Sequence record: PZ452583.1
DNA: 64,000 bases
From: a phage
Strand: one strand, 5' to 3'
Positions 9,042-50,450 of the stretch are shown here, in pieces (position 1 is the stretch's first letter; every line of letters begins with the position of its first letter). A program made the translations under genes and the position numbers. Under the pieces are notes generated by a model that had not been told where the DNA came from, ran no database searches, and saw only the letters and a program-made list of their open reading frames with translations.

Positions 9042-9071
9042 ATTATACCACATCCTTGTGGTAAAGTAAAC
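9042..9071 (-). promoter_or_regulatory. early promoter upstream of rIIA.1/rIIA
   Basis: GTTTAC (+9066-9071), 18-nt spacer ending TGG, TATAAT (+9042-9047); -35 overlaps gene 39 stop. Confidence 0.6.
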
Positions 9072-10888
9072 TACTGGCTCATCCATTCTTTACGAAGGTC
9101 AGCATTATCTCCCATGAGCATTTCAAAAAGCTCTTTCCAGTTCTCAGGAAGTTTAACAACATCATATACTGGATTTTGAATCATCTCACGATATTCAGAT
9201 TTTTCCAAAGAGCCAAGTCCCTTAATATAACGGATGCTATGTTTAGATAGAGCATCTTTAGCACTCTCATATTCAGCGACTGTATAAAACCATTCTTGTT
9301 TTTTACCGACCTGGGCGATGATTACAGGAGTTTTGACAAAGCGAATTCGTCCTTGCTCAAACAATTCTGGCCAATTACTAAAAAATCCGAGCAGAGAAGG
9401 ATAAATGCTTCCTAAACCATCATGGTCAGCATCGGTCATAATAGCAATATTATGATAATTCAAGTTTTCAGCTTTTTCACCAAGAACTAATCCAGTGATT
9501 GCGCAAATATCAAATAGTTCTTTGTTTTTAAGCATATCAGCATATGACATACCCCAACTATTGAGAACTTTACCACGCAATGGATAACCACCATGAAGTT
9601 CTTTATCACGAACATCAATAAGATATCCGATAGCAGAATCACCCTCAGTCAAGAAAAGAGTAGTGTCAGCATCTTTACCACAAAGATTCGCTTTGATATG
9701 TTTATGAACCTTAGCTTTAGAAGCCTTTTTAGCTGCTTTAGTTTCTGCTGCTTTTTCTGCCGCCAATTTACGAGCCAACGCAGCTTCAATAATTGGCATT
9801 AAAATTGCTTCATTATTTAAAATAGCACGTGAAATCTTTTTAGCATCAAGTTGAATATGACTACGAATTTCGCCAAATGGAGAAGTCAAACGCTCTTTAG
9901 TTTGAGAATCAAATCGCATGTTTTTCATATCACGAACAAACATAACGATAGTCAAACATTCTTTAACGCGTGCTTTAGTTACATCAATTTTGAATTTACG
10001 TTTGATTTGTGGAATAAGGTCTTCACAAATATCATCCATAACACAATCAATGTGATGACCACCATTCTTAGTGTGAATGTTATTCACATAAGTTAATTGA
10101 CGAAAACCATCCGGTGAACGACCAACCGCAATAGAACAATTTTCTTGTTCTTGAACAATAGCGTGTTCATCATACTGTCGTGCATATTTCTTAAAATTGC
10201 CCTGAACCTTTTTACCATTAAAGGTAAATTGAATATCAGGATAAACAACAGCAAGTGTCTGGAGACGATCTAGTGTAATATCAAGATAAACCTGAGACAG
10301 CTCATTAGTTTCAAATGACATAAAATCAGGAATGAAAGTAACACGAGTTCCTTTCCATTTTCCAGGAATAGTTTCCCAGGATTTATTTTCCATACCATTT
10401 GAACAACGAACTACAATATTATTTTGACCATCGCCAGTTTCACCGACAAACATCACAGAAAAAATGTTAGTTAAACTAGAACCAACACCATTCATACCGC
10501 CGGTGACGCGTTCTTTATCATCACCGAAGTTACCACCTGCTTTTGGAATAGTCCACGCAGCAACAGGACCAGGAATTTCTTCACCAGTAGGTGTTTTAAC
10601 CATCGCCTGTGGAATACCACGACCGTTATCTTCAACTGTTACTTGATTGTTTTTAATAGTAACATTAATTTTATTTGCGAATTTAAACTTAGTACGAATA
10701 CCTTCATCTACTGAGTTATCGATAATTTCATCAATAAGCTTAACAAGACCAGGTACATACTGAACACTTTCCCATTTACCAAACAGAAAGCGCTCATGCA
10801 TTTCATTAGCAGAAGAGCCAATGTACATGCCACTACGCTTTTTGATATGTTCAATATCGCTCAGAATTTTAATTTCATTCTTAATCAT
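9071..10888 (-). CDS. 39: DNA topoisomerase II large (ATPase) subunit gp39, unsplit
   Basis: 605 aa from ATG 10886-10888 (SD GAGGATAAG); GyrB-like; no separate gene 60. Confidence 0.9.
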   Translation of the reverse strand: MIKNEIKILSDIEHIKKRSGMYIGSSANEMHERFLFGKWESVQYVPGLVKLIDEIIDNSVDEGIRTKFKFANKINVTIKNNQVTVEDNGRGIPQAMVKTPTGEEIPGPVAAWTIPKAGGNFGDDKERVTGGMNGVGSSLTNIFSVMFVGETGDGQNNIVVRCSNGMENKSWETIPGKWKGTRVTFIPDFMSFETNELSQVYLDITLDRLQTLAVVYPDIQFTFNGKKVQGNFKKYARQYDEHAIVQEQENCSIAVGRSPDGFRQLTYVNNIHTKNGGHHIDCVMDDICEDLIPQIKRKFKIDVTKARVKECLTIVMFVRDMKNMRFDSQTKERLTSPFGEIRSHIQLDAKKISRAILNNEAILMPIIEAALARKLAAEKAAETKAAKKASKAKVHKHIKANLCGKDADTTLFLTEGDSAIGYLIDVRDKELHGGYPLRGKVLNSWGMSYADMLKNKELFDICAITGLVLGEKAENLNYHNIAIMTDADHDGLGSIYPSLLGFFSNWPELFEQGRIRFVKTPVIIAQVGKKQEWFYTVAEYESAKDALSKHSIRYIKGLGSLEKSEYREMIQNPVYDVVKLPENWKELFEMLMGDNADLRKEWMSQ

Positions 10889-10940
10889 CACTTATCCTCG
10901 TTTGGTTTCGGGAATATTATACTCCGGTAATCATAAAGCT

Positions 10941-10958
10941 AAAGGCCCGAAGGCCTTT
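10941..10958 (-). terminator. AAAGGCC-UUCG-GGCCUUU hairpin
   Basis: 7-bp stem with UUCG loop right at the lipoprotein stop, upstream of the gene 39 -10 element. Confidence 0.5.
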
Positions 10959-12750: not shown

Positions 12751-12809
12751 TAATCAACTACTGATGTATATAGTTTTATGAAAAAAAAAAATTTAAACTT
12801 TATGCAAAT

Positions 12810-13229
12810 TTATGCTAAAGCTGCTTCGCACCATTTTTTAATTTGGAATTCAGGAACTACCATGAACTGGCCTGCAAAAACAATATTGTAGAGCTTGACA
12901 CCATCTTCTACCCAACGGTCCGAAATAAAACCAGCGACTTGATTCGTTGTCCATGGAGTTCCATCTGTTGCCGCCGCAATTGTGAATTTATGGTCTTTTA
13001 CAACTAAAACTGAAGAACAAAGTTTCCATTTAAATGCGCGTTCTTCTGGCTCAATGAACTGACTTGAGACATAACCAATGTTACCATCAGCGTCACGAAC
13101 TTTAACCTCGTTACGACCAAAAACTGGATCACTTACAGAAAGAACTTCAACCAGCTTTCCTGCAACTTTAGAACGAGAAGCAACGGATACATATACGTAA
13201 TCACCAGTAGAGAGATTTACAATATTCAT
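12810..13229 (-). CDS. hypothetical protein (139 aa), member of a tandem paralog trio
   Basis: shares C-terminal motif with the next two ORFs (G-x-x-S/T-D-x-W-V/I-E-D-G-x-x-L-x-N-I/V-V). Confidence 0.55.
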   Translation of the reverse strand: MNIVNLSTGDYVYVSVASRSKVAGKLVEVLSVSDPVFGRNEVKVRDADGNIGYVSSQFIEPEERAFKWKLCSSVLVVKDHKFTIAAATDGTPWTTNQVAGFISDRWVEDGVKLYNIVFAGQFMVVPEFQIKKWCEAALA

Positions 13230-13238
13230 AATAATTCC

Positions 13239-13712
13239 TTAAGCTTTACGAGGAGAAGCATAACGAGTGATTTCAGATTCTTCAACAACCCGGAAGTCAC
13301 CTAAGAATACGATATTGTAGAGCTTTTCACCATCTTCAACCCATTGGTCTGTGATGAAGCCACACATCCTATCAGTTTTACTTGGACCAGCGAAATCATC
13401 AATATAATCGAATTCTTCATCAGTTACAAATTCAACGCCTTTACACAACGCCCATTTAAATTGTGTATTAGACTCAGTGGATTCAACTTCTTCAACAGAA
13501 GCAAAATGAGAGCTAACACGAGTTTCCAGAAATTTAGGACTTACGTAAGCGTACTGAGTTTCAGTTTTTCCAGAACTAGGAATGATTCGAACTTTAACTT
13601 CTTTAACACGACCAGTACCATTAGTACGAAGTCCTACCACTTCAACTAGACGACCTGCAGCTTTAGAACGAGATGCAGACGATACACGCTTAATTTCACC
13701 GATAGTAATCAT
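13239..13712 (-). CDS. hypothetical protein (about 157 aa), tandem paralog
   Basis: start moved to MITIGEIKR... because a promoter -10 overlaps the ORF-track start; N-terminus aligns with 12810-13229. Confidence 0.5.
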   Translation of the reverse strand: MITIGEIKRVSSASRSKAAGRLVEVVGLRTNGTGRVKEVKVRIIPSSGKTETQYAYVSPKFLETRVSSHFASVEEVESTESNTQFKWALCKGVEFVTDEEFDYIDDFAGPSKTDRMCGFITDQWVEDGEKLYNIVFLGDFRVVEESEITRYASPRKA

Positions 13713-13755
13713 AATTTTTCTCTCTTTGTTGTTAAGATTTATACTCCGCAGGACC

Positions 13756-13785
13756 ATTATACTCTGGTCCCAAGAGTTTGTAAAC
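13756..13785 (-). promoter_or_regulatory. early promoter
   Basis: GTTTAC (+13780-13785), 18-nt spacer, TATAAT (+13756-13761). Confidence 0.5.
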
Positions 13786-14222
13786 TAGCTTACACGAACA
13801 TTAATCACTGCGCTACGAGGAACTACAGAGTATTCTCCAGCATGAACTACGTTCAGAAGTTCAACACCATCTTCAATCCACTGATCAGTCACCCATCCAC
13901 CCACAGGATTCGCGAATGGACGACGAATATAAACTGCCTTACACAGCAGATCAGTTGGATCTTCAGGTTTTTCAATTTCTGTCAATAGACTAAAATCTTT
14001 TTCATAAATAATAAGCGATGATACCATTCCATAATAGTTTCTAATTTCAATATACATCATACCGATAAGAATTCCGCTATTAACACTAATAACAGTAAAA
14101 GGATATCCGCCAGTTAAACCAAGAAGTTCACAAAACTTATTATGAGCTGTATTAGACAGTACCGAAAAATTCTTAATTTCATCAAATTTTTTCAATTGAT
14201 AAACAGCATTATTTTTAATCAT
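13785..14222 (-). CDS. hypothetical protein (145 aa), tandem paralog (C-terminal domain shared)
   Basis: C-terminal GGWVTDQWIEDGVELLNVVHAGEYSVVP matches the trio motif. Confidence 0.5.
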   Translation of the reverse strand: MIKNNAVYQLKKFDEIKNFSVLSNTAHNKFCELLGLTGGYPFTVISVNSGILIGMMYIEIRNYYGMVSSLIIYEKDFSLLTEIEKPEDPTDLLCKAVYIRRPFANPVGGWVTDQWIEDGVELLNVVHAGEYSVVPRSAVINVRVS

Positions 14223-14232
14223 GATTTTCTCT

Positions 14233-14745
14233 TTAATCTAAAGTAATAAAGCCTTTTAATTCGGCATGTGATTTGCGGAACATTACTTGGTGCCCGCCAA
14301 TGATAACTTGATCATCTGGCACTTCATAAATCGCAATGTACATTCCACGATCTTTTAAGTCTTCACGCTCTTCTCGAGTAAACCATCTCATTATATCATA
14401 TTCACTAGCGAAAGCAAAATGATATAATGCAATAAACCACAATGGAATATAATTTTCAATTCGTGAATAATCTTTATTCCATTTAGTTTTAATAGCATCA
14501 TTAGCATTTTCAACTAATAACTTATCATCGTGTGGAATAGGAATACTTTCATGGCTTTCATAATCATTGCTATGATGATGAAATGATGATGAATTAATAC
14601 CGCAAAATTTTAGCCAAGTTCGAGTTTTCATAGAATCAAATCCACGATAAGGAGTTGATTGAACGCATAACTCTTGCCTAATTTTCATTATACCACTATC
14701 ATCATTTAATGCGCTAAACGATGATTCAACACGATAAATTTTCAT
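14233..14745 (-). CDS. hypothetical protein (about 170 aa)
   Basis: ATG 14743-14745 with SD GAGGATAATAAA. Confidence 0.5.
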   Translation of the reverse strand: MKIYRVESSFSALNDDSGIMKIRQELCVQSTPYRGFDSMKTRTWLKFCGINSSSFHHHSNDYESHESIPIPHDDKLLVENANDAIKTKWNKDYSRIENYIPLWFIALYHFAFASEYDIMRWFTREEREDLKDRGMYIAIYEVPDDQVIIGGHQVMFRKSHAELKGFITLD

Positions 14746-15492: not shown

Positions 15493-15749
15493 TAAATTTT
15501 CCTCGCTAAATCACGAATTTGACCTACAGTATAGTCTTGAATATAAACTTTATTGATAGGCTCATCAATAAATTTTGCCATAGATTCAATGTCTTTTTGT
15601 ATTTCTTCAAGACTGTATACTATCTTTAAAGCTTTTTCGCGAATAGTAATATTTTCAGGACCCTGATTTTCTTCAATGACAGCTTTAACATTTGTCATAA
15701 GAGATTTAAACTGGTACCAACTCAACTCAATCATTAATAATCGCCTCAT
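15492..15749 (-). CDS. hypothetical small protein (85 aa), tandem paralog
   Basis: ATG 15747-15749; similar to next ORF. Confidence 0.5.
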   Translation of the reverse strand: MRRLLMIELSWYQFKSLMTNVKAVIEENQGPENITIREKALKIVYSLEEIQKDIESMAKFIDEPINKVYIQDYTVGQIRDLARKI

Positions 15750-15972
15750 AAAGATAGCTAATTTCGCCTAAAACGTAATCATTGATTGTAACAGTTTTCA
15801 CTTCACCACAAAAGAATTCTAACGCAATTAAATCTCGTTCAATTTCTTCTAATTGAAGCATCAACTTACTAGATTCAATTTTTACAGTTTCACGATTTTT
15901 ACCATGAGCAATTTCATAAATTTCGCTAACTTTATCCTGAAGAAGATAAAACTGATCTTTAGTTATTTCCAC
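15727..15972 (-). CDS. hypothetical small protein (about 81 aa), tandem paralog
   Basis: likely GTG start preceded by GAGGAAG; track start is TTG. Confidence 0.4.
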   Translation of the reverse strand: MEITKDQFYLLQDKVSEIYEIAHGKNRETVKIESSKLMLQLEEIERDLIALEFFCGEVKTVTINDYVLGEISYLYEAIIND

Positions 15973-16219
15973 GAATAGCTTCCTCAAATTTAATTAGTAA
16001 TTTACAGACACTTTCATCTAGTGTAATTACCGTATCTGTATTACTGTGATATGATTGTTTTTCAATTCGTTTAATTGCTAATATAGTATCACTTATAAGA
16101 TAAAGCTTATGAAGGAGCTCAGCTCCTGTTATCATAACATTAAGATTATCTTGCTTATTAGTATGCTTCCTTATACCATCTATTAGACGATTTAAATATT
16201 TTGAATTGATGTTAATCAT
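15959..16219 (-). CDS. hypothetical small protein (86 aa)
   Basis: ATG 16217-16219; ORF track. Confidence 0.5.
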   Translation of the reverse strand: MININSKYLNRLIDGIRKHTNKQDNLNVMITGAELLHKLYLISDTILAIKRIEKQSYHSNTDTVITLDESVCKLLIKFEEAIRGNN

Positions 16220-16225
16220 ATATCC

Positions 16226-17545
16226 TCACACATAAAATACGTCATAACGACCACGGGTAACACCAACATAAAGAAGTTGTTGAGCTAGTTCAGCATCTGC
16301 ATAATGAATACAAGGCGTATAAATGAAAGCACGGTCTACAGACATACCCTGAGCTTTATGGAATGTTGATGCAGGAAGTGCTTTCACTTTACTAAACTGT
16401 GATTTAGCATCCCAAAAATCACTCCACGGAGCTTTTCCGCCTTTGTTCCAATTTTTATAAGTTTCTGCCGTTTTACCTAAAAATAGGTTAAACTTATATA
16501 GCTCTTCATCAGATGAAATTATTTTAATCTTTTCACGATAATATTCATCATCGCCGTAAGTTTCTACTGTTAAATCCCAATGACGAATTAAGTATTCTCC
16601 AGGAACACCACGAGCTTTAACAAACGTCGATGTATACTCTGCTTCTATAATACGAACTAATTGTCCATTATTAAAAATAATTTCTGACACAGGCTTTCCG
16701 TCAATTTTATATGTTTTAATTAATGGTTCCTGCATTACAATAATTTCACCGACAATAAAATCTTTATCAGTTTCAAAAATCTTTTTACGAATAATGCTAT
16801 TTAACTTGTCAACAGATTTATTCGTAAATGCCATTACGCGATTTTCAAACAAATCATCTAAAGATTTGACGATTGAAAAATAATTTACCATAAAATCGCG
16901 TAAAGCGGTATCACCAGTAAATCCACGTACTCCATGCCCGTCAACAACTTTATCATAAATCCACTTACCGTTACGAACGTCAGTAGCTACATCAATAATA
17001 GGAGCATTACTGCGTTTAACTTCAGTGAGTTCACACTGATAAAAATCTTTATGTGTAAAGAATGGACTGATATAAGCAGTGTTTTCTCCTGGGTCAACAG
17101 GTCTAATTTGCTTATTATCACCTATTCCAATTATAGTACACCATGGCGGGATAGTTGAAAGCAGAATTTTAAATAGCTTTCTATCATACATTGACACTTC
17201 ATCGCAGATTAATACTCTGCATTTAGCTAAATCTGGTACTTCCTTCTGCTCAAAGAGGACATTTTCTTCATATGTTACCGGGTTAATTTTGAGAATACTG
17301 TGAATAGTACTCGCTTCTTTCCCTGATAGTTTTGAAAGAATCTTTTTAGCTGCATGTGTAGGAGCTGCCAAAATGATACCAGTTTCGCCCGTAGATATTA
17401 AAGCTTCAATGATGAACTTAGTAAGAGTAGTCTTACCAGTACCAGCAGGTCCATTAATAGTTACATGATGTTTCTTTTCTTTAATAGCCCTCATAACAAT
17501 GTTAAAGGCATTTTTCTGGCCTTCAGTCAAATCATCAAATGTCAT
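16226..17545 (-). CDS. dda: Dda DNA helicase
   Basis: 439 aa as T4 Dda; Walker A GPAGTGKTT; SF1 helicase motifs. Confidence 0.92.
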   Translation of the reverse strand: MTFDDLTEGQKNAFNIVMRAIKEKKHHVTINGPAGTGKTTLTKFIIEALISTGETGIILAAPTHAAKKILSKLSGKEASTIHSILKINPVTYEENVLFEQKEVPDLAKCRVLICDEVSMYDRKLFKILLSTIPPWCTIIGIGDNKQIRPVDPGENTAYISPFFTHKDFYQCELTEVKRSNAPIIDVATDVRNGKWIYDKVVDGHGVRGFTGDTALRDFMVNYFSIVKSLDDLFENRVMAFTNKSVDKLNSIIRKKIFETDKDFIVGEIIVMQEPLIKTYKIDGKPVSEIIFNNGQLVRIIEAEYTSTFVKARGVPGEYLIRHWDLTVETYGDDEYYREKIKIISSDEELYKFNLFLGKTAETYKNWNKGGKAPWSDFWDAKSQFSKVKALPASTFHKAQGMSVDRAFIYTPCIHYADAELAQQLLYVGVTRGRYDVFYV

Positions 17546-22145: not shown

Positions 22146-22391
22146 TTATTCACCAGTTACTTTCCACAAATCTTCGTTTGCAGTAATCCATTCAGTACGT
22201 TGATTTTCTTCATATACTGTAGAATATGCTGCTTTTTCTGAAGGGAATATCTGGTAATGAGCACCAGAAATTTTGTGAACGTCAGAATAAAGAGGGAAAG
22301 CTACAGAAATTTCCTTTCCTTCAATTTTCTTATTTCCATCTAATTTCTGCTCAAATGTTTTGATATTAACATAACCGCGAGTACTAGCCAT
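22146..22391 (-). CDS. soc: Soc, small outer capsid protein
   Basis: 81 aa (MASTRGYVNIKTFEQKLDGNKKIEG...), recognisably T4 Soc; SD GGAGAA. Confidence 0.85.
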   Translation of the reverse strand: MASTRGYVNIKTFEQKLDGNKKIEGKEISVAFPLYSDVHKISGAHYQIFPSEKAAYSTVYEENQRTEWITANEDLWKVTGE

Positions 22392-22421
22392 GTAATTCTC
22401 CTTTTATTTAAATTACATGAT

Positions 22422-22429
22422 TATTTATA
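22422..22429 (-). promoter_or_regulatory. late promoter (TATAAATA) upstream of soc
   Basis: exact TATAAATA on minus strand about 30 nt upstream of soc ATG; soc is a late gene in T4. Confidence 0.6.
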
Positions 22430-22474
22430 ATAAATTCTCGCGGCTTTTAAGTCGTCGTTTATTTAAACGAGCTA

Positions 22475-22993
22475 TTAATAGCCTCGATCTTGACGAGCGA
22501 AGTTTTCGGCATTTTTCAGATAATAAAGTTTAAAGATTTCTTCAGCTGACATTCCAAGAGCAATGAATTTATTCATGAAAAAGTGAAATTGGTCAATTAG
22601 TTCAAATTTAATTTCAAGTTGATCTTCAGGAGATAAATCTTGAATTTTCTTGGATTGCATTTCAGAATAACGTTTCTTCCAAGGTTTCCATACAGCAGAA
22701 GCTTCTTTTTCACCATTACTCATACCACCAAGAGAAGTATATAGCTCGCGAGTTTCATCTGCGATATAATCGTCTTGGTTTCGCAACCAAGCAAGAACTT
22801 CTCCTGCAGTTTCAAGTGAATCAGGATGACGATTTGTTTCTGGTTTATCATTAGCCAAACGAATCTGTAAATGCCGCTGCATGTCAAGCATAACCTGCAA
22901 TGGGTCAATACTGTGCATAATATACTCAGCATATGCACGATTTGCTTTATCAACACCTTCGATCAAATGAGCACATTCATTAAAGTGAGCCAT
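22475..22993 (-). CDS. 56: gp56 dCTPase/dUTPase
   Basis: 171 aa from ATG 22991-22993 (MAHFNECAH...); MazG-like; soc-56-dam synteny. Confidence 0.85.
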   Translation of the reverse strand: MAHFNECAHLIEGVDKANRAYAEYIMHSIDPLQVMLDMQRHLQIRLANDKPETNRHPDSLETAGEVLAWLRNQDDYIADETRELYTSLGGMSNGEKEASAVWKPWKKRYSEMQSKKIQDLSPEDQLEIKFELIDQFHFFMNKFIALGMSAEEIFKLYYLKNAENFARQDRGY

Positions 22994-23053
22994 TATTTTT
23001 CCTTTCAATTCATTAATAAGTTAAATAATTATATCATTTGAGTATGTAAGCAA

Positions 23054-24393
<1,340 letters not shown>

Positions 24394-25709: not shown

Positions 25710-25711
25710 TT

Positions 25712-35700: not shown

Positions 35701-35718
35701 AAGGGGCCGAAGCCCCTT
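35701..35718 (-). terminator. GGGGC-UUCG-GCCCC hairpin upstream of gene 43
   Basis: 7-bp stem with UUCG loop between upstream ORF stop and the gene 43 leader; a TATAAT follows on the minus strand. Confidence 0.45.
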
Positions 35719-35722
35719 TGCT

Positions 35723-35959
35723 TTAAATTTCTATTGTACGACGCGATATAACGGACTTGCCATCTGTATTTGTGGTTTTGATAATCGCATGAAATGCGCG
35801 TTGGCGTGGGTAAACTAATCGTTGGAATTCTTTTTGGAATTCTATTTGTTTATCTTCCGGGAGGTCAAAAACCAGTTGGGTAGAAGACAGACCATATGTT
35901 TGTTTTAGATTTTCGAATATTAGAAAAGCTTCGGTAAACTGAATCTCTGATTGTGTCAT
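35723..35959 (-). CDS. hypothetical protein (about 78 aa) between regA and 43
   Basis: ATG 35957-35959 with SD AAGGT; track start lies inside regA. Confidence 0.4.
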   Translation of the reverse strand: MTQSEIQFTEAFLIFENLKQTYGLSSTQLVFDLPEDKQIEFQKEFQRLVYPRQRAFHAIIKTTNTDGKSVISRRTIEI

Positions 35960-35969
35960 ATAATTTACC

Positions 35970-36338
35970 TTAATTACCAATCGTATATTTAGGAACGAGT
36001 TTCCATTCATGTTTTTGTTTAAAAGAAATAACTCGGAAGTTATTAGTTAAATCTTTCATAAAAGTTCTTTGACCAGGAACGATTTCAATCAATCCCCAAT
36101 CTTCTAACAACCATGCAATCGAATCACGACGAACTTCATCTTCTTCTGTCATTTCAACTTGACGACCATCCATACGAAGCATTTCTTTAAAATGAACGAT
36201 ATAGTATAGTCCTTTTTTCTGAAGAATATGACAGGACTGATACAGAACTTTATCTTTATTATTAGCAATTCCCATACGAGTCAAAGTTTCTTTTACTTTC
36301 AGAAAATCTTCAGGTTTTTTAAGAGTAATTTCAATCAT
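35970..36338 (-). CDS. regA: RegA translational repressor
   Basis: 122 aa; sequence recognisably T4 RegA. Confidence 0.9.
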   Translation of the reverse strand: MIEITLKKPEDFLKVKETLTRMGIANNKDKVLYQSCHILQKKGLYYIVHFKEMLRMDGRQVEMTEEDEVRRDSIAWLLEDWGLIEIVPGQRTFMKDLTNNFRVISFKQKHEWKLVPKYTIGN

Positions 36339-36904: not shown

Positions 36905-37864
36905 TCACTTCCACTGCATTTCGCATGCTAATTGAATGAAAAGATAAGCTAGATGCAATTCAGTATTAGCTGCAATACCATGATACTGATTATTTTCGCC
37001 GACAATTTCGTACATACGAATAATACTTTGTGGAGTTACACGTGAATAGATTTCTTCGGCAAGTTTACCCACGAACCACGAATAATCGGCTGCATATTTT
37101 GGTGCTAAAGCTCTGAGTTGTTTAACATCTTTATTTTTGAGAGACTCAAGAACATCATCAATAGCACCACGATCGTTAGTAACCAGTGATAAAATACCAG
37201 CATCCAAAACACCTTTAGATGAATAACTATCGAGCTCGCCAATAGTTTTACGAAAATCAGGAAAATTCTTTTTAACCAAAGCTGCTACAACTTTCATATC
37301 AGCTATAGCAATACCTTCATGTTTACAGATTTCAGTCAATCGACGAATCATCTGCTTCATCATTTCAATTTTATCTTCATCGGTCGGTTGACCGAACGTA
37401 ATAACTCGGCAGCGTGACTGAAGTGGTTTAATAATACCATCAATATTGTTAGCAGTAATAATAATACTACAGTTTGAACTATAAGCTTCCATAAAGGAAC
37501 GAAGATGTCGCTGAGATTCTGCTAAACCTGAACGGTCAAATTCATCAATAACGATTACTTTTTGACGACCATCAAATGAAGCGGCGCTGGCAAAATTAGT
37601 CAAAGGACCACGAACGAAATCAATTTTACAATCTGAACCATTCACAAACATCATATCAGCATTTACATCATGACACAATGCTTTTGCTACAGTTGTTTTA
37701 CCTGTTCCTGGAGAAGGAGAATGAAGAATAATATGTGGAATCTTACCTTTACTTGTAATAGATTTAAAGGTTTCTTTATCAAAGGCGGGAAGAATACATT
37801 CATCGATAGTAGATGGACGATATTTCTGTTCAAGAATGTGTTCTTTTTCATTTACGGTAATCAT
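36905..37864 (-). CDS. 44: gp44 clamp-loader ATPase
   Basis: 319 aa from ATG 37862-37864 (SD GAGGAA); Walker [11 protein letters not shown]; SRC motif. Confidence 0.9.
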
Positions 37865-37898
37865 AATTTCCTCATTCAAGTTTTAGTGTAAATTATAA

Positions 37899-37912
37899 AG
37901 GGCCGAAGCCCT
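37899..37912 (-). terminator. tetraloop hairpin between 45 and 44
   Basis: AGGGC-UUCG-GCCCU on minus strand, A/U-rich flank. Confidence 0.45.
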
Positions 37913-37915
37913 CTA

Positions 37916-38602
37916 TTAAAAATCGTGGGTAGAATCAGCTTCAAGAGCTACTACATAATTCGCATGTTCACCTTCAAATTTAGCAGCACCTTGTTTACCT
38001 TTTGCCCAGAGCAGAAGTTTATAATTTCCTGGTTGCATTTTCATATTTGCCATATTGATAATGAAATTAAATGTATTTTCACCATCATAATCACCAAGAG
38101 TCAAAGAATATTTAACACGGGTCAGAGCAGAATCTTCTACTTTATTAAAACCGTTAATTACGATTTTACCTTCTTTTACCGTGATAGCAATTGTATCAAT
38201 TTGCAGACCACGAGATACACGCAACAGTTGTTGAAGGTCTTCAGCTTTAATTTCAGTAACAACAGATGCTACCGGGAATGGAATTGGTTTATTAGGAGCA
38301 ACTACTGTACTCGGATCGGCTGCTGGCCAAAAAATTGTTGAACGGGCATCAGCAATTTTAATATTTCCATCTTCTGACTGGGAAATTTCTGCATCATCAT
38401 TAACTAGAGACAGAATACCAAGAAAACCGTTTAAATCGTAAATTGCTACATCAAAATCAATAACGTCAGAAATATTTGCTTCCGCATAAGTTGTACCATT
38501 AACTGCGCGAGTCATAATAAATTGACCGGATTTAAGCATAATACCGGAGTTAATAGTAGCGAAATTTTTAAGCAGAGCAGTAGTATCTTTAGACAGTTTC
38601 AT
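37916..38602 (-). CDS. 45: gp45 sliding clamp
   Basis: 228 aa as T4 gp45; upstream MotA-box promoter. Confidence 0.85.
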   Translation of the reverse strand: MKLSKDTTALLKNFATINSGIMLKSGQFIMTRAVNGTTYAEANISDVIDFDVAIYDLNGFLGILSLVNDDAEISQSEDGNIKIADARSTIFWPAADPSTVVAPNKPIPFPVASVVTEIKAEDLQQLLRVSRGLQIDTIAITVKEGKIVINGFNKVEDSALTRVKYSLTLGDYDGENTFNFIINMANMKMQPGNYKLLLWAKGKQGAAKFEGEHANYVVALEADSTHDF

Positions 38603-38631
38603 GTAATTTCCTTCAATTCAAATGAGATTTA

Positions 38632-38658
38632 ATTTTATAACTAATTTAATAAAGCAAT
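38632..38658 (-). promoter_or_regulatory. middle (MotA-dependent) promoter upstream of gene 45
   Basis: MotA box TTGCTTTA, 12 nt, then TAAAAT on minus strand; gene 45 has a middle promoter in T4. Confidence 0.6.
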
Positions 38659-39047
38659 TAACGATTAAAATCAGCCGCAATTGTTTCCGCAACAATTTGA
38701 GCAGCAACAATTAGACGTTCATCTGCATTACCACAATAATCATCTTCAAGGCGTTCACCACATGAAGTCATAATAAATTTAGCACCGGCGTTTAGGGATT
38801 CTGTAGTATGTTTGCGCATTAGTTCAATCCATTTATTACTTACTTCACGATCGATAGCTTCATAATACGCATGACGAGCAGGTGCAGATTTAATTTTGTT
38901 CTGAATAACTTCCATTGCGTTATCAGAAAGAGACAAAACCCATGCGCGACGAATTTTATTTTGGTTTTGCGGATTTGAGTCAGAACGCACGTGTTTTGGC
39001 TGAATATCTTTTACATCAACAGTATAATTCACAGTAATTTTAGTCAT
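38658..39047 (-). CDS. rpbA: RpbA, RNA polymerase-binding protein
   Basis: 129 aa as T4 RpbA; between 46 and 45. Confidence 0.6.
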
Positions 39048-42606: not shown

Positions 42607-42624
42607 AAAGGGCCGAAGCCCTTT
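42607..42624 (-). terminator. AAAGGGC-UUCG-GCCCUUU hairpin at a-gt stop
   Basis: 7-bp stem with UUCG loop overlapping the a-gt stop codon. Confidence 0.5.
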
Positions 42625-43825
42625 ATTTTGTAATAATGTCAAACTGTTCTTTAAAGCAGAAGCTTGAATCTTGATGCTGATACAAAAATTCATAAGCTTT
42701 TTCGCGTTCACGGTCATAAAGAGTTCGGTCAGATGACAGTTCTTTAATACGCTCGAATGTTGATTCCATGTCATTTTCATCAAACCAAATGATACCGCTA
42801 TCATGCGAGGTCAAAGGAGTATTATCAACACGGAATTTTAAATTTTCGCCAGTAGATTTCCAAAATACCGGAATTGTTCCACATGCACCAAGCTCGAGAT
42901 GAGTATATTCTAAAGAACGTTGTAGATATTTTTTGTCCAACTTACTCAGCTGATAACCAAAACCGGATTTACTCATGCGTTCAAGCATTTCGCTATTTAC
43001 ATAACGGTCAAGAATTTGCGTTGGCAAATTAGGAGCAATTTTAATTTGGTCTACTTGATGAAGACGATAATACTCGTATGGAATTCCTTTTTCTTTAATA
43101 GGAATGAACGCTGGAGAACGTTCCAGACCTTCCATAATAGTACTTAGTCCTGCAGGTTTAAGATGTTTTTCATGAAAATCAAACATCTGATAAAAACCTT
43201 TCCATGTAGTCGTACGACCAATCCAACGGTTGATATTCATGTTAATTTCAGAAACATCTTTCCAGTAGGTTGACCGAACCTTCGCAATATCCATAGGAGG
43301 CTGAAAGTTATATACTGTCGGTGCTTCTTCAATATCATCAAACAGAGAAACTGTTTCAGGATACCATTCTTTCATCAGAACTTTATTAAAATCACCATTA
43401 TCAGAATGGCTAAAAATAACATCAGCTCGACGAACAGTTTCTTCTAATCCCAAATTTCGGCGCAAAGAAAGAGAAGAATGGTCATGTTGATAAACTACAA
43501 CACGAACAGAAGGTTTAATGTTATCAATAATTTTTTTATAGTTATTAATAGTGTCTTCTTCAACCGAAGTAGCAGGAACTGAATTGATAATTAGAATATC
43601 ACAATCATTTACCAGCTTAAGTGTTTTATCATATTCTTTTGCCAATAAAACCGGAATTGAAAATGATTTATAATCATGCGCGCAATTACGAGTAAATGAT
43701 TTATCTTTAGCATAAACCAAAGTTACTTCATGACCATTTTTAATAAACCAATCACGTTGCTCGAGTGAGAATTTTGTTACACCACAACCTTCAAGACCTC
43801 GAGCCATAAAAATACATACTTTCAT
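42623..43825 (-). CDS. a-gt: alpha-glucosyltransferase
   Basis: 400 aa; sequence recognisably T4 AGT (...CIFMARGLEGCGVTKFSLEQRDWFIKNGHEV...). Confidence 0.9.
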   Translation of the reverse strand: MKVCIFMARGLEGCGVTKFSLEQRDWFIKNGHEVTLVYAKDKSFTRNCAHDYKSFSIPVLLAKEYDKTLKLVNDCDILIINSVPATSVEEDTINNYKKIIDNIKPSVRVVVYQHDHSSLSLRRNLGLEETVRRADVIFSHSDNGDFNKVLMKEWYPETVSLFDDIEEAPTVYNFQPPMDIAKVRSTYWKDVSEINMNINRWIGRTTTWKGFYQMFDFHEKHLKPAGLSTIMEGLERSPAFIPIKEKGIPYEYYRLHQVDQIKIAPNLPTQILDRYVNSEMLERMSKSGFGYQLSKLDKKYLQRSLEYTHLELGACGTIPVFWKSTGENLKFRVDNTPLTSHDSGIIWFDENDMESTFERIKELSSDRTLYDREREKAYEFLYQHQDSSFCFKEQFDIITK

Positions 43826-43849
43826 TTAATATCCTCTTTGTTTTGGTTT

Positions 43850-43875
43850 ATTTTACCAAAAATTTATAAAGCAAT
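43850..43875 (-). promoter_or_regulatory. middle (MotA-dependent) promoter upstream of a-gt
   Basis: MotA box TTGCTTTA, 11 nt, then TAAAAT; same architecture as the gene 45 promoter. Confidence 0.55.
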
Positions 43876-43876
43876 A

Positions 43877-43894
43877 TAGGAGCCGAAGCTCCTA
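43877..43894 (-). terminator. UAGGAGC-UUCG-GCUCCUA hairpin
   Basis: 7-bp stem with UUCG loop just upstream of the a-gt middle promoter. Confidence 0.5.
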
Positions 43895-44068
43895 TCCACA
43901 TAATACGCCATACAGAGGCTCATTAGAACTTTTAAATTTTATGCGCTTATATTTTATAGTTCCTTCTGCTTTAGCTTTATCATGAGACTCTTTAAAGAGT
44001 CTCATGATTTCCTCTTTAGAGGAACGAATTTTATTATAATCTATTTCAGAAGTCTGGGTGTTCATCTT

Positions 44069-44272
44069 TCATAACTGCCACCATTTTTTGACTTGATAAG
44101 AATCAACCCACACTTTCATATTAGGGTCTGCTCTTACAATAGGAGGATTAACTTCTTTAATTGAACTATCATGGTATTCTTTTTCAGAAATTTTCACACA
44201 AAGATGACCATTCAAAGATTCAGTAAATCCTGCATTAATTTTAAGACGCTTGAATTTTACGTGTGTAAGCAT
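44069..44272 (-). CDS. hypothetical protein (67 aa)
   Basis: ATG 44270-44272; track start is TTG. Confidence 0.45.
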   Translation of the reverse strand: MLTHVKFKRLKINAGFTESLNGHLCVKISEKEYHDSSIKEVNPPIVRADPNMKVWVDSYQVKKWWQL

Positions 44273-44558
44273 CAATCATATCCTCAATTTGCGATCTAGT
44301 AGTCTTCCAAAGAATACTGATGAGTTCATCGTTATATGGCTGTTTTAGAATATCCCGACTTTTCTTGATAGCATATTCGTATTGAGCAAAATTATTGTTT
44401 TCAGCTGCGATCTGAGCGTGCTTATAAAGACGATTCAGTTCGCGTTTGTTTTTAGACAATAACTTATTTGCTTTTCTTTCTGCTTCAAGACGGTTCTTTT
44501 CTTCAATAGAAGAAATAAGCTTTTCCACTTCATCATTAATTTCGGGTTTATCAGTCAT
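44241..44558 (-). CDS. hypothetical protein (105 aa)
   Basis: ATG 44556-44558; ORF track. Confidence 0.5.
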   Translation of the reverse strand: MTDKPEINDEVEKLISSIEEKNRLEAERKANKLLSKNKRELNRLYKHAQIAAENNNFAQYEYAIKKSRDILKQPYNDELISILWKTTRSQIEDMIDAYTRKIQAS

Positions 44559-44559
44559 A

Positions 44560-44778
44560 TTATTTCTCTAATATAAAATAAAAATCATCATCTGTTAAAT
44601 GATACCTGTAATTTAATTCTACACCATTAGATTTAAAAGCGGTATCATACGGATTTTCTGGATCAATATCAATGTCAAGAGCTAAAACTTCCCTGAGATA
44701 CATTTTAAGTAAATAGGGAATAGCTTCAACTTCAGGTATTTCTTCCAAGAATCCGGAGAGGTTAATCGTTAGCCTCAT
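44560..44778 (-). CDS. hypothetical protein (72 aa)
   Basis: ATG 44776-44778; overlaps gene 55 3-prime end. Confidence 0.5.
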
Positions 44779-45319
44779 ATAAAAAATCCAAACTAGGAGA
44801 ATCGTCTACAACACTTTTCTTTTCAGCCCCCGGTGTTCTATAGGTTGATTCTTCGTAATGCGTCATTTTATCGTAGATGTCTTGAATAAAAGTTTCATCT
44901 ACTAACGCAACCATATCGTCGTCACGACTGTCATAGACATTGTGAACGAAGTAACTATATTTCTTTGCAACTTCCTTACGTTCTTTTTTAATACGCTGGA
45001 CGAATGCATTAAAACAAGCTTGAGTTATATATGCATGTGGGTTTTTATATTTCGTTTCATCAAAATTATGAAGCCCCTTAATAGAAGCTTCTATACCATC
45101 TGCAATCATTTCTTGTTTCCAAGACTGGGTGTATCCTGAAAAGTTGAAACGTTTAGATAAGCCTTCTGCAATAAGCATAATGGCTAATCCGATAGTATCA
45201 TTCTGACGAACTACTTTATTTGGGTCTTTATTATTTGCTAATTCTGTTTTCCAATCAATAATAGCTTGTAAAAGCTCTTTATTGTTTACGTAATTATATT
45301 TAGGCTTAGTTTCTGACAT
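44762..45319 (-). CDS. 55: gp55 late sigma factor
   Basis: 185 aa from [20 protein letters not shown]...; sequence recognisably T4 gp55; SD AGAGGTGAAA. Confidence 0.92.
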
Positions 45320-45397
45320 TTTCACCTCTTAGCTCAATTCATAGATCTATTATATCATAATATTTGAAGATCTATCTTAAAGCATAGAGGATATCAG

Positions 45398-45667
45398 TTA
45401 TCTAAGTAAACAGTATGCTTGGAACACTTTCTCCATCATCTTTTTAAATTCATGAATATCTATATAATGACTAGTTAAATCAGCATGATATAAAAAGTCT
45501 AAAAACTTTTCATGTGTGCTAACATATTCACTTTCATTTAATTCAGAAACATGACTTTCCCAATATCCAACACCAGTCTTATTTGGGAAAAATGAAATTT
45601 TCATGTATTGGTCAACATAGAAAATGCCATAATTTTCAATAGTAATAGAAATATTAATAAATTTCAT
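45398..45667 (-). CDS. hypothetical protein (89 aa)
   Basis: ORF track; ATG 45665-45667. Confidence 0.5.
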   Translation of the reverse strand: MKFINISITIENYGIFYVDQYMKISFFPNKTGVGYWESHVSELNESEYVSTHEKFLDFLYHADLTSHYIDIHEFKKMMEKVFQAYCLLR

Positions 45668-45879
45668 ACATTCATCAACTTAGCCGCTTCAAGAGCTGCA
45701 TCTAGTGAATCAAATTGGTCAACATATTCAATCAATTCGCCATAATTGGCATATAACCACCATTGGCTAAATTCATACTCAAGGATGAATCCGTTTCCTT
45801 CAATTTGAGTTAAACCAATGCCATTTGTATTTACTTCATACCCAGCAAGACGTAAATCGTTAATAAGAGCTTCGTTCAT
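45664..45879 (-). CDS. hypothetical protein (71 aa)
   Basis: ATG with SD AAGGTATAAT. Confidence 0.5.
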   Translation of the reverse strand: MNEALINDLRLAGYEVNTNGIGLTQIEGNGFILEYEFSQWWLYANYGELIEYVDQFDSLDAALEAAKLMNV

Positions 45880-45881
45880 AA

Positions 45882-46208
45882 TTATACCTTAGTAATTTTC
45901 AGGTCTGCAAATTTTTTCTTGCGTTGATTTTTCATACGACGAATAGTTTTATCGGAAATTTCATGCTTTTGATAAGCTTTAGATTCTACGCCAAAAGCTT
46001 TAACATCAAATTCTGACAAGATATATTGAACCAACAATTCACGGACAGTATTGCGTCCAATCTTCTGATCATTCTGTTTCATCGTCTGATGAAGCTCTTT
46101 TTCCCATTTATCCAAAATTTGAGGAGTTACAATATCGCCTTTTTCTAGCAAAGAAACTACTTTATCATATGCGTAAGAATTGATGGCGTTTTTAATTTGA
46201 ATAGTCAT
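45882..46208 (-). CDS. hypothetical protein (108 aa)
   Basis: ORF track; ATG 46206-46208. Confidence 0.5.
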   Translation of the reverse strand: MTIQIKNAINSYAYDKVVSLLEKGDIVTPQILDKWEKELHQTMKQNDQKIGRNTVRELLVQYILSEFDVKAFGVESKAYQKHEISDKTIRRMKNQRKKKFADLKITKV

Positions 46209-46245
46209 ACATTATCCTCAATTGCATTAAAATTTTATTATCCAA

Positions 46246-46261
46246 AAGGGCCGAAGCCCTT
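46246..46261 (-). terminator. AAGGGC-UUCG-GCCCUU hairpin
   Basis: overlaps stop of 46260-46460 ORF; U-rich tract follows on minus strand. Confidence 0.5.
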
Positions 46262-46460
46262 AGCTAAACTTTTTGGCACCCTTCCAGCCTTCGTACATCA
46301 TTGCGGCTGATATTAATATTGCTCCTGAGCAACTTGAATATTTGTGATTCCAAAACCAGTTTAGAAAAACTTCATCATCAATACCTTGGGCTATCATATT
46401 TTCAAAGAACTGACGACGAGCTTCGGCAATTCGTTGTGATAATTTAGATTCAGGATTCAT
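46260..46460 (-). CDS. hypothetical protein (66 aa)
   Basis: ORF track; ATG 46458-46460. Confidence 0.45.
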   Translation of the reverse strand: MNPESKLSQRIAEARRQFFENMIAQGIDDEVFLNWFWNHKYSSCSGAILISAAMMYEGWKGAKKFS

Positions 46461-46592
46461 TTAAATTTTCCAGTTACCATTTTCATCAATAAATTTAATC
46501 CAGTCATTTACTGACCACTTAGTTGTATCGCCTTTTGGAGTAACATTTAAAGTGTATAACCCCTGCTTAAAAAGCATTCGTTTAATATTCAT
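46461..46592 (-). CDS. hypothetical small protein (about 43 aa)
   Basis: ATG 46590-46592 with SD GAGGAAAAT; track ORF is an upstream extension overlapping the next gene. Confidence 0.4.
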   Translation of the reverse strand: MNIKRMLFKQGLYTLNVTPKGDTTKWSVNDWIKFIDENGNWKI

Positions 46593-46599
46593 ATTTTCC

Positions 46600-46893
46600 T
46601 CAGCTGTAACGATAACATTCGTTTGATTTGCGCTTAGCAACTCGTTGAGATGTATTATAATCAAAATCATCGTCAATGTAAACTGATTTTTTCAACTTTC
46701 TTACTTCACCACGCAGTTGACGATTCAATTCATTCTTAACCTCTGAATCAACACCTCGCATACGTCGCCATTTATCTGAACGAAAAATGTTTTCAACCAT
46801 ATCTTTATGACTTACCCCATCAGGAGCTTTACGCTTTCCGAAATAGTCATAATCACGAACTTTCAAGTCTTTACGACGATACGTTTTACCCAT
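46600..46893 (-). CDS. hypothetical highly basic protein (about 97 aa)
   Basis: ATG 46891-46893; Arg/Lys-rich (MGKTYRRKDLKVRDYDYFGKRK...). Confidence 0.45.
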   Translation of the reverse strand: MGKTYRRKDLKVRDYDYFGKRKAPDGVSHKDMVENIFRSDKWRRMRGVDSEVKNELNRQLRGEVRKLKKSVYIDDDFDYNTSQRVAKRKSNECYRYS

Positions 46894-47068
46894 GGAGTTT
46901 AATTTCCTTAGCAACTGAACTAAATACAGCACGATCACAAATCATGTGTTTATGTAACTTAAGTATAAGATAATAAACATCATAACCATTTACGTAAGTA
47001 ACACGAACAACATTACCATTAATAAAATAATATTGTCCCTTTTTAATTTCTTTATCAACCACAACCAT
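46886..47068 (-). CDS. hypothetical protein (60 aa)
   Basis: ATG 47066-47068 with SD GAGGATTTGAT. Confidence 0.5.
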   Translation of the reverse strand: MVVVDKEIKKGQYYFINGNVVRVTYVNGYDVYYLILKLHKHMICDRAVFSSVAKEIKLHG

Positions 47069-47226: not shown

Positions 47227-47550
47227 TTAGTCTTCTATGATATCTCTATCATATCCAAGTGAAATGAGAGTTTCTTTGAAGTGTTTAATGTTCTTTTGTC
47301 TAGAATCATTAATGAAAATGACTGGATAACGAATGTTAAGAGATGTGAATCCAGCGCGTTTAGCAAGAGATACAATCAGCGGACGATCATACTCAATCTT
47401 ACCATTATTTGTAAGAACTTTATAGAAAGTAAAAGGAGCATTGAGCTCCTTTAGAAGTTTTGTAACTGATTGACATCCAGGACAACGACCAACTTCATCT
47501 GGAATTCCGTAGACTTCAATCTTATTCTTTAAGTTCGAGTTTTGTTCCAC
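47227..47550 (-). CDS. nrdH: glutaredoxin-like protein (NrdH-like)
   Basis: CPGC redox motif after KIEVYG beta-strand; no in-frame ATG near the fold start, so GTG at 47548-47550 inferred (107 aa). Confidence 0.55.
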   Translation of the reverse strand: MEQNSNLKNKIEVYGIPDEVGRCPGCQSVTKLLKELNAPFTFYKVLTNNGKIEYDRPLIVSLAKRAGFTSLNIRYPVIFINDSRQKNIKHFKETLISLGYDRDIIED

Positions 47551-47833
47551 GAGAAATAATTCCTTGGTAAGCCCAATAAGGAGGATTAACAGAATCCTCA
47601 CCAGAGTTTTCTTCAGGAAAATAAACCTGGATAACGAAGCCGGATTCATCAAAGGTGAAATAAGTAGTAGGCAGTTCACCTAACAAATCGGCACGAGCGT
47701 TGATTTCTTCGAGGTCTTGTTCACGTCCAGCCCAGAAGCTTGGGTTCAGACTACATTCATAGAAATAATAGTCATTACCGAACATATCAAAACCATTCCA
47801 ACTCTCTACTACATACCGCTCAAAACTAATCAT
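47522..47833 (-). CDS. hypothetical protein (103 aa)
   Basis: ORF track; ATG 47831-47833. Confidence 0.5.
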   Translation of the reverse strand: MISFERYVVESWNGFDMFGNDYYFYECSLNPSFWAGREQDLEEINARADLLGELPTTYFTFDESGFVIQVYFPEENSGEDSVNPPYWAYQGIISRGTKLELKE

Positions 47834-48051: not shown

Positions 48052-48165
48052 ATTTACCCTTAATTAATTAACCAAGCATTGATAAGCACTAAACTATATT
48101 GCGAATAAAATTCTGGACCAAAATGAAAAATCATATCATTTATAGTATCCATAATGTAATTCAAT

Positions 48166-48636
48166 TTAATCATGTGTCCACACCCCATCGGTATTTGACC
48201 AAAGTCGCTGATTATCTGATCCTCGCCACAGCTTTTTGGTCGGAAGATTTTTCTCATACTTCCCATCAATAATAACATCAACATATTTAAGCATTTCTAG
48301 TTGTTTAATATCTTCAAACTTATATCCTGTCCACAACCAAATGCTTTTATTGGGATAAAGATTTTTAATAGTTTGAACCACAGAGTGAATCACGTCTCTG
48401 TTATCAGGATAAAGAGGGTCACCTCCGGTTATAGTTAATCCTTCTATATAATCATTATTCAAACATTCAATCAATTGTTCTAGTGTTTCACCAGTGAATG
48501 GAATACCATTTCTAGCATTCCATGTTGATTTATTATAACACCCTTCGCATTTATGCAAACAACCTGTAACGAAAAGAACGACCCTGCATCCAGGGCCATT
48601 CACAAAATCACAGGGATAAAATCTATCATAATTCAT
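48166..48636 (-). CDS. nrdG: NrdG, anaerobic ribonucleotide reductase activating protein
   Basis: 156 aa as T4 NrdG; radical-SAM CxxxCxxC (CLHKCEGC). Confidence 0.85.
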   Translation of the reverse strand: MNYDRFYPCDFVNGPGCRVVLFVTGCLHKCEGCYNKSTWNARNGIPFTGETLEQLIECLNNDYIEGLTITGGDPLYPDNRDVIHSVVQTIKNLYPNKSIWLWTGYKFEDIKQLEMLKYVDVIIDGKYEKNLPTKKLWRGSDNQRLWSNTDGVWTHD

Positions 48637-50450
48637 TGGTGTTTAACCCTATGCATGATTTCTTTATTTTTACCGAGATTAAATCCGCGCTCGTTCGGAT
48701 TTCCCAAATAACCACATGTTCTTCTTATGGTATTCATCTTTTTAGGATCAGTTTCTCCACAAATAGAACAAACAAATCCGTTTTCAGTAGGAGTCATTTC
48801 ATGGGTACTTCCGCATGTAAAACACTTATCTACTGGCATGTTAACACCAAAATAATCTAAATGTTGTGCAGCATAATCCCACACGGCCTCAAGACCTTTT
48901 AAGTTATTTTTCATATCAGGAAGTTCAACATAAGAAATGTGACCACCTGTCGCAATGAAATGATATGGTGCTTCACGAGAAATCTTTTCAAACGGAGTAA
49001 CATTTTCTTCTACTGAAACGTGGAAACTGTTAGTGTACCAGCCTTTATCAGTAACATCCTTTACACTTCCATATTTTTCGGTATCAAGTTTACAGAAGCG
49101 ATAACACAAGTTTTCAGCAGGAGTAGAATACAAACTAAAAGCAAATCCGGTTCTTTCAGTCCATTGTTTAAGATGAGTATTCATTTTAGTTAAAATTTCT
49201 TGTCCAATATCACGACCGACAAGAATATTCAATTCGTGAATACCAATGTATCCTAGAGACACTGAACTTCTACCGTTTTTAAATAACTCAATTATGTCGC
49301 CATCAGGTTTAAGACGAACCCCGAATGCACCTTCTTGGTAAAGAATAGGAGCAACAGTTGCTTTAACTCCTTTTAAGGAACTAATTCTACACATCAAAGC
49401 TTCAAAACATAAATCCATTCGTTCATTGAACAATTCAACAAATTTCTGTTCATTGAATTGTGTTCCAATATAAGAATCTAACGCGATGCGAGGAAGATTC
49501 AATGTTACAACACCAAGATTATTACGTCCATCAAGAATTTCATTGCCAGTCGAATCTTTCCATACGCTCAAGAAACTACGGCAACCCATCGGAGAAACAG
49601 GAACAGATGAACCAGTGATAGCTTTATTGTTCTTAGCTGAAATAATATCAGGATACATCCTTTTGCTTGCACACTCTAGAGCAAGCTGCTTAATATCATA
49701 GTTCGGATCATCTTTATAAAGATTAACACCTTCTTCGACGAACATAACAAGCTTAGGGAAAATAGGAGTTATCCCATCACGACCGAGACCTTTAATACGA
49801 TTTTTCAGAATTGCTTTCTGAATCATTCGTTCAGTCCAGTCAGTTCCCGTACCAAATGTAATTGTTACAAAAGGAGTCTGTCCGTTTGAACTAAAGAGAG
49901 TATTTACTTCATATTCATACGCTTGGAATGCATCGTATACATCTTTTTCTGTTTTAGATTGAGCATAATTTAACGCATCAGCGATTTGCCATTTTTCTGC
50001 ATCCTCAATATGTTTTGCATAGGTGCGTTTAACATAAGGAGAAAGTACTTTATCTACATTAGCAAAAGTCGTTCCGCCATATTGATGGGAAGCAACTTGC
50101 GCAGTAATTTGTGCCATAATTGCAGTAGCAACACCGATTGATTTAGGAGTTTCAATCTGCGCATTACCAAGCTTAAATCCTTTCTCAAGCATTCCTTTTA
50201 AATCTACTAAACAACAATTAGTAAATGGAAGAGCAGGGGAATAATCAATATCGTGGAAATGGATAATTCCGCTTTCATGCGCTTTCATAATAAAAGACGG
50301 GACCATATTTTTGGCAATGTGTTTAGACACAATACCAGCCATAAGGTCCCGTTGAGTTGGAAAAACACGAGAATCTTTATTAGCATTCTCGTTTAAAAGG
50401 TCTTTATTAGTTTTATGAATCAATCCTTCAATTTCTTTTTCAATTGTCAT
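48633..50450 (-). CDS. nrdD: NrdD, anaerobic ribonucleotide reductase
   Basis: 605 aa continuous ORF; C-terminal zinc-ribbon cysteines and glycyl-radical region (RTCGYLG); no intron. Confidence 0.93.
   Translation of the reverse strand: MTIEKEIEGLIHKTNKDLLNENANKDSRVFPTQRDLMAGIVSKHIAKNMVPSFIMKAHESGIIHFHDIDYSPALPFTNCCLVDLKGMLEKGFKLGNAQIETPKSIGVATAIMAQITAQVASHQYGGTTFANVDKVLSPYVKRTYAKHIEDAEKWQIADALNYAQSKTEKDVYDAFQAYEYEVNTLFSSNGQTPFVTITFGTGTDWTERMIQKAILKNRIKGLGRDGITPIFPKLVMFVEEGVNLYKDDPNYDIKQLALECASKRMYPDIISAKNNKAITGSSVPVSPMGCRSFLSVWKDSTGNEILDGRNNLGVVTLNLPRIALDSYIGTQFNEQKFVELFNERMDLCFEALMCRISSLKGVKATVAPILYQEGAFGVRLKPDGDIIELFKNGRSSVSLGYIGIHELNILVGRDIGQEILTKMNTHLKQWTERTGFAFSLYSTPAENLCYRFCKLDTEKYGSVKDVTDKGWYTNSFHVSVEENVTPFEKISREAPYHFIATGGHISYVELPDMKNNLKGLEAVWDYAAQHLDYFGVNMPVDKCFTCGSTHEMTPTENGFVCSICGETDPKKMNTIRRTCGYLGNPNERGFNLGKNKEIMHRVKHQ

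Follow-up and report, generated by a model that had tools for sequence, protein, structure and literature searches.

Uninvaded loci and intact host genes at the sites of T4 mobile elements in a phage sequence with a probable T2-like backbone

Phage T4 carries homing endonuclease genes, an intron in nrdD and a MobA/bypass cassette in gene 39. We analysed the corresponding positions in a 64,000-nucleotide (nt) stretch of phage DNA (sequence record PZ452583.1; this whole stretch is called the window). Very probably, wherever T4 has one of these elements, the window carries the uninvaded allele instead. The loci are uninvaded, and their host genes are intact. Seven T4 mobile blocks were found to be cleanly absent: the bypass/60.1/mobA cassette, segF, segA, mobB, mobC, the nrdD intron with I-TevII, and mobD. 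Both flanks of these seven gaps were 94-98% identical to T4 in blastn. The other references were T2 (AP018813) and T6 (AP018814), and only coordinates were taken from these two records.

The gene 39 locus has the following features (aa, amino acids):

9071-10888, minus strand: gene 39, unsplit DNA topoisomerase II large subunit, 605 aa (identity to T2/T6 and Pfam domains)
9419-9471, minus strand: empty site of the T4 bypass/60.1/mobA cassette (alignment break)

The open reading frame (ORF) of gene 39 (9071-10891, minus strand) has 606 codons when started at a GTG, and an ATG one codon in (10888) gives the 605-aa product. This product was identical to T2 gp39 at 602 of 605 positions (99.5%) and to T6 gp39 at 603 of 605 (99.7%), and it contained the Pfam domains HATPase_c, DNA_gyraseB, Toprim and TOPRIM_C. 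Its alignment runs without interruption from T4 gp39 (94% identity) into T4 gp60, end to end. T4 2806-3911, which holds the bypass, 60.1 and mobA as well as the ends of 39 and 60 that diverge, is replaced by about 51 nt in the window. The window sequence at the position of the T4 take-off site is GAT GGT TTA GGA AGC (D-G-L-G-S), whereas T4 reads GAT GGA TAG followed by a 50-nt gap. The frame continues uninterrupted through ...DADHDG-LGSIY..., with neither the UAG nor the 50-nt gap. The empty site was 96% identical to T2. An initial annotation, made from the sequence alone, had described gene 39 as a single 605-aa ORF with neither gene 60 nor translational bypass. This description was borne out, as the ORF spans T4 gp39 and gp60 unbroken.

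A second group of features concerns the anaerobic ribonucleotide reductase genes:

48633-50450, minus strand: nrdD, continuous anaerobic ribonucleotide reductase, 605 aa (identity and Pfam NRDD, E=3.5e-170)
49912-49915, minus strand: T4 nrdD intron insertion point, uninterrupted in the window (T4 44815-45849 absent)
48166-48636, minus strand: nrdG, overlapping the nrdD stop codon by 4 nt (mobC site empty)

NrdD was identical to spliced T4 NrdD at 599 of 605 positions, and likewise to T2 NrdD. The 1,035-nt T4 intron with I-TevII is absent exactly at 49912/49915 in blastn against T4. Moreover, Rfam gave no match to any family, group I introns included, in all 64 kb of the window. This negative is meaningful because the same search, run on T4 43000-47000 as a positive control, found the nrdD intron (RF00028) at 105 bits. 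T2 and T6 have almost the same sequence at this site, and around the insertion point nrdD agrees with them at those synonymous positions at which T4 is different. The reading of nrdD as one continuous 605-aa ORF without an intron was thus confirmed by the ORF itself, the protein identity and the controlled Rfam search. Since nrdG overlaps the stop codon of nrdD by 4 nt, the mobC site between them is empty, and T4 42916-43518 (mobC) had no counterpart in the window by blastn.

The third locus lies between soc and gene 56:

22146-22391, minus strand: soc, small outer capsid protein, 81 aa (78/80 identical to T4 Soc)
22392-22474, minus strand: soc-56 spacer, 83 nt, without segF (T4) and without soc.1/soc.2 (T2/T6)
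22475-22993, minus strand: gene 56, dCTPase, T2/T6-type allele (protein identity)

T4 segF (15611-16269) had no counterpart in the window by blastn. T2 and T6 carry two small ORFs, soc.1 and soc.2, between soc and 56 (330 bp in T2), whereas the window has neither; the T2 segment with these ORFs (14259-14588) likewise had no counterpart in the window. The short spacer is a third arrangement, unlike both T2/T6 and T4. Among phage records, the short spacer was found complete in 64, the soc.1/soc.2 segment was at least 80% covered in 178, and segF was present in 50. The claim that no homing endonuclease gene separates soc from 56 held, although the spacer measured 83 nt and not 84 nt as annotated. 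Gene 56 is the SegF target. Its allele was of the T2/T6 type, with 169 of 172 gp56 residues identical to T2 (98%), 168 of 172 to T6 and 120 of 171 to T4 (70%).

The remaining sites, and the ORFs that stand in place of T4 blocks, are:

43816-43841, minus strand: empty mobB site between alpha-gt (42623-43825) and alpha-gt.2 (T4 37817-38679 without counterpart)
30134-30982, minus strand: beta-glucosyl-HMC-alpha-glucosyltransferase-like ORF, 282 aa (phrog_842, E=8e-89; Pfam TAGT, E=1e-10)
60680-61665, minus strand: two ORFs in place of T4 mobD, a 153-aa membrane protein (phrog_944) and a 173-aa y05I/MobD.1-like paralog (Pfam/PHROGs)

The glucosyltransferase-like ORF, which we take to be the T2/T6 glucosylation enzyme, sits between uvsX and gene 42, where T4 has segA and beta-gt. 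T4 beta-gt had no match in the window; alpha-gt is present at the coordinates given above. At the mobD position, the 173-aa paralog (61144-61665) is followed by a second one (61672-62226, minus strand), and both are putative transcription factors of the y05I/MobD.1-like type (Pfam T4_y05I_N and T4_y05I_C). T4 has a single copy adjoining mobD, whereas the window has two in tandem.

Homing endonucleases were also sought as proteins and as remnants. The proteins of the T4 mobile blocks and the endonuclease-like ORFs of T2 and T6 were compared with every stop-to-stop frame by phmmer --max and tblastn. No hit for an endonuclease remnant in the six frames of the window was better than E=0.04. At the DNA level, segments specific to T4, T2 or T6 gave zero matches anywhere in the window (blastn, word size 9, E<1e-3). 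Where a window ORF has a T4 counterpart, the T4 gene carries a non-endonuclease annotation; each ORF without a counterpart was scanned by Pfam and/or PHROGs, and no endonuclease family was hit. The sole His-Me/HNH-related fold in the window is that of gp49, which is a resolvase and not a homing enzyme:

50447-50920, minus strand: gene 49, endonuclease VII (Endonuclease_7, E=5e-22; Endonuc-dimeris, E=1.5e-33)

Together, the blastn gaps, the six-frame search and the family scans agree with the statement of the initial annotation that no GIY-YIG or HNH homing endonuclease ORF is present in the window.

The alignment to T4 (NC_000866) showed that the window spans T4 from ~162,500 through the T4 coordinate origin to ~59,400. 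This span covers arn.3/arn.4, motA, 52, rIIB, rIIA, 39 ... nrdD ... rI, with every gene on the minus strand. In all likelihood, the window is the early-gene arm (rIIB to ~rI) of a Tequatrovirus with a T2-like backbone. Over positions 9071-50450, 93.2% of bases aligned to T2 at 96.8% identity, 89.7% to T6 at 95.8% and 89.3% to T4 at 95.0%. The reference DNA left unmatched in the corresponding span was 1.6 kb for T2, 3.5 kb for T6 and 7.0 kb for T4. T2 was the most collinear of the three references, with an uninterrupted block of 13.3 kb (22442-35723) at 97.4% identity, inside which the glucosyltransferase-like ORF falls. A T2/T6-like reading of the backbone, as first proposed, is supported by the sequence comparison: both identity and collinearity decreased from T2 to T6 to T4, and gp39, gp56 and the glucosyltransferase were of the T2/T6 type. 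The opposite pattern, highest identity to T4 with T4 inserts relocated, was not seen in the alignment of 9071-50450 to the three references. Product names in the T2 and T6 records were mostly wrong (e.g. the gene 41 helicase appears as 'major capsid protein' and nrdD as 'RNA ligase 1').

The same data bear on the idea that the window comes from a T4 derivative, natural or laboratory, which lost its inserts by precise deletion. The endonuclease genes are dispensable, and flanks 94-98% identical to T4 over much of the window would suit such an origin. The alleles around the empty sites do not: they are T2-type, gp56 is 98% identical to T2 against 70% to T4, a different glucosyltransferase replaces beta-gt, and overall identity is higher to T2. 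Moreover, at synonymous positions that separate T4 from T2/T6, the nrdD exon beside the insertion site has the T2/T6 bases. Because the flanking alleles are T2-type, we rejected an origin from T4 by secondary deletion and regard it as very improbable. Collapse of repeats or insertions during assembly could in principle produce clean junctions as artefacts, but nothing specific speaks for it, and its chance is close to negligible. Each junction lies in frame within intact, full-length ORFs, and the junctions recur in T2, in T6 and in independent records numbering dozens to hundreds.

The two halves of 9071-50450 were queried by megablast against 50,697 phage records. Together they retrieved ~1,000 Tevenvirinae records, and 406-489 records covered at least 80% of each 20-kb query. 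With these 406-489 records as the comparison base, the T4 inserts were rare: the bypass/mobA cassette was found in 41 phage records, the nrdD intron in 25 and segF in 50, and many of the insert carriers are T4 isolates. The absence of T4 inserts is the majority state. T4 has been described as the outlier for such insertions (PMC2988022), and every clade that carries the cassette has close relatives without it (preprint, bioRxiv 10.1101/2022.08.31.505936). Accordingly, the uninvaded configuration is ordinary and already known, and the window is one more genome showing a known pattern.

The likely background to this pattern is that the T4 elements are selfish insertions. Such an element cuts or nicks the empty allele of a co-infecting relative and is copied in during repair. 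Where the elements never arrived or were lost, simple host genes would be expected: one topoisomerase polypeptide, an uninterrupted nrdD and abutting neighbours. In published work, T2 markers were excluded at T4 endonuclease sites in mixed infections (PMC2988022), and MobA copied the split gene and bypass cassette into T2 (bioRxiv 10.1101/2022.08.31.505936). Because the target regions of the window are T2-type, the published T2 x T4 crosses predict that, in a cell also infected by T4, this phage would act as the recipient and its local markers would be lost. T4 MobA, SegF and I-TevII would nick or cut these target regions, and recombinational repair would then bring in the T4 elements together with flanking markers.

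One ORF in the window is a candidate nuclease of another kind:

23833-24393, minus strand: ORF with PD-(D/E)XK nuclease fold, 186 aa, candidate nuclease (fold and conserved catalytic D...ExK)
23054-23833, minus strand: dam, D12-class N6-adenine DNA methyltransferase (MethyltransfD12, E=8e-51)

Lying between gene 61 and dam in the same orientation, the ORF overlaps dam by a single nt, shared by its own stop codon and the dam start codon. Its family is small (phrog_8706, with 10 clusters in a set of 5.8 billion proteins) and has the invariant residues D72 and E85-I-K87. The ORF was found in 164 phage records, and in 147 of them megablast returned it with dam next to it. Klebsiella phage Shinkou has a homolog with 44% identity, and metagenome contigs have homologs with 55-63%; these also lie directly upstream of a D12-class methyltransferase gene. 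Judged by this gene order, the ORF and dam have the architecture of a restriction-modification pair. No credible match was obtained in the PDB by phmmer and profile searches, and NCBIfam gave noise only. Pfam gave only sub-threshold matches to DpnII (E=0.0099, 15.7 bits against a cutoff of 23), BanI and HSDR_N, and the DpnII match is the sole hint of sequence-specific cleavage blocked by methylation. A promoter-like site upstream of the ORF (24447-24419) is a consensus match only, and such sites were no commoner than in shuffled sequence. A full-text search for an ORF upstream of T2/T4 dam returned nothing relevant, which does not in itself show that the ORF has not been described.

If homing endonucleases of an overlooked class were present, this ORF could be one of them, as a free-standing selfish nuclease. 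We consider this unlikely. All that is left of the ORF in T4 is its final ~95 nt upstream of dam, so that the polymorphism resembles a loss by deletion in T4 more than an invasion of the window. Moreover, the ORF always adjoins the Dam methyltransferase gene, which points to a restriction-modification-like pair rather than a classical homing enzyme. Tentatively, the ORF may instead encode an active endonuclease that partners the phage Dam in a restriction-modification-like selfish module, and T4 Dam would then be an orphan left by deletion of the nuclease gene in T4; we hold this to be possible, but on the doubtful side. If true, the product would cut DNA without the Dam mark, e.g. that of co-infecting relatives lacking dam, and the absence of classical homing endonucleases would not make the backbone free of selfish nucleases.

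Several points weigh against the reading of the window as an uninvaded, T2/T6-like backbone. The PD-(D/E)XK-fold ORF belongs to a class that the initial annotation did not consider, and it could itself be selfish. The empty state does not single out T2/T6, because it is the majority state of the genus, and close to the insertion point, 1 nt of the nrdD site is unlike T2. The window covers 64 kb, and the rest of the genome may hold endonuclease genes (at td, nrdA/B, the tRNA region, genes 23/24 or 32/59). Susceptibility to T4 endonucleases is a prediction from the resemblance to T2.

Further differences to the references were seen at other positions. Three minus-strand ORFs are found in none of T4, T2 and T6 at the same position: an RB18 ORF43.1-family protein between gene 43 and regA (35723-36010), a DUF7200 protein downstream of gene 55 (45398-45667) and a phrog_2749 protein just upstream of nrdH (47522-47833). 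The motB region is the most divergent part of 9071-50450 with respect to T4, T2 and T6. Three consecutive ORFs of 139, 172 and 145 aa (12810-14222, minus strand) all match the MotB family (Pfam PF17613), and 12806-14704 is largely unaligned to T2. At the position of T4 gene 61.2, there is a 118-aa ORF (25878-26234, minus strand), with an ORF of the same size in T2. Its match to Pfam AdfA (anti-DarT factor A; E=9e-8) is confined to the C-terminal half of the profile, positions 113-211 of 211, and the ORF may be a truncated or alternative anti-defence allele. Finally, a dispersed intergenic repeat of ~95 nt occurs at 1101-1215, 4736-4832, 32759-32855 and 59549-59654. The repeat is 78-86% identical to T4 intergenic sequences at ~27010-27100, 55315-55430, 163604-163709 and 167013-167114, and it presumably resembles the promoter-early stem-loop (PeSL) cassettes of T4-type phages.

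Reviews since 2010 treat T4 as the exception, and the window confirms the common state. On its own, this is of small import. The practical use is that the window can be placed as a T2-like mosaic Tequatrovirus. DNA glucosylation of the gentiobiosyl type, not of the T4 type, is also predicted, as is a loss of markers to T4 when both phages infect the same cell. Among the elements seen here, only the nuclease-like ORF adjoining dam could lead to something new.

In comparison with the known phages, T4 has the same gene order as the window from rIIB to rI. Within this span, T4 has in addition the split 39/60 with the bypass, 60.1, mobA, segF, segA, beta-gt, mobB, mobC and the nrdD intron with I-TevII. 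T4 mobD lies just beyond the 9071-50450 span and is not in the window. T6 shares the unsplit gene 39, the T2/T6-type gp56 and the lack of an nrdD intron, but two of its ORFs are missing from the window: one of 284 aa between 46 and 46.1, and a seg-like one with NUMOD3 and an I-TevI DNA-binding domain, placed between nrdG and nrdD. Moreover, T6 has neither dam nor the nuclease-like ORF upstream of it. T2 resembles the window in its unsplit gene 39, in being without segF, segA, mobB, mobC and the nrdD intron, and in its T2-type gene 56 and beta-alpha-glucosyltransferase. It also has dam and the upstream nuclease-like ORF. T2 differs by a disrupted ORF (863 bp) with an HNH-like motif and no Pfam match between 46 and 46.1, which the window does not have, and it lacks the ORFs at 35723-36010, 45398-45667 and 47522-47833. 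Other phages are nearer to the window than T2 is. For 9071-30000, the best megablast record was Shigella phage Sf24 (97% covered, 96.0% identity), and for 30001-50450, the best records were RB51/RB68 (100% covered, 98.2% identity). Near-identity across both halves was found in no database record, neither in these phages nor in any other. The window has a mosaic structure, which is common in this genus.

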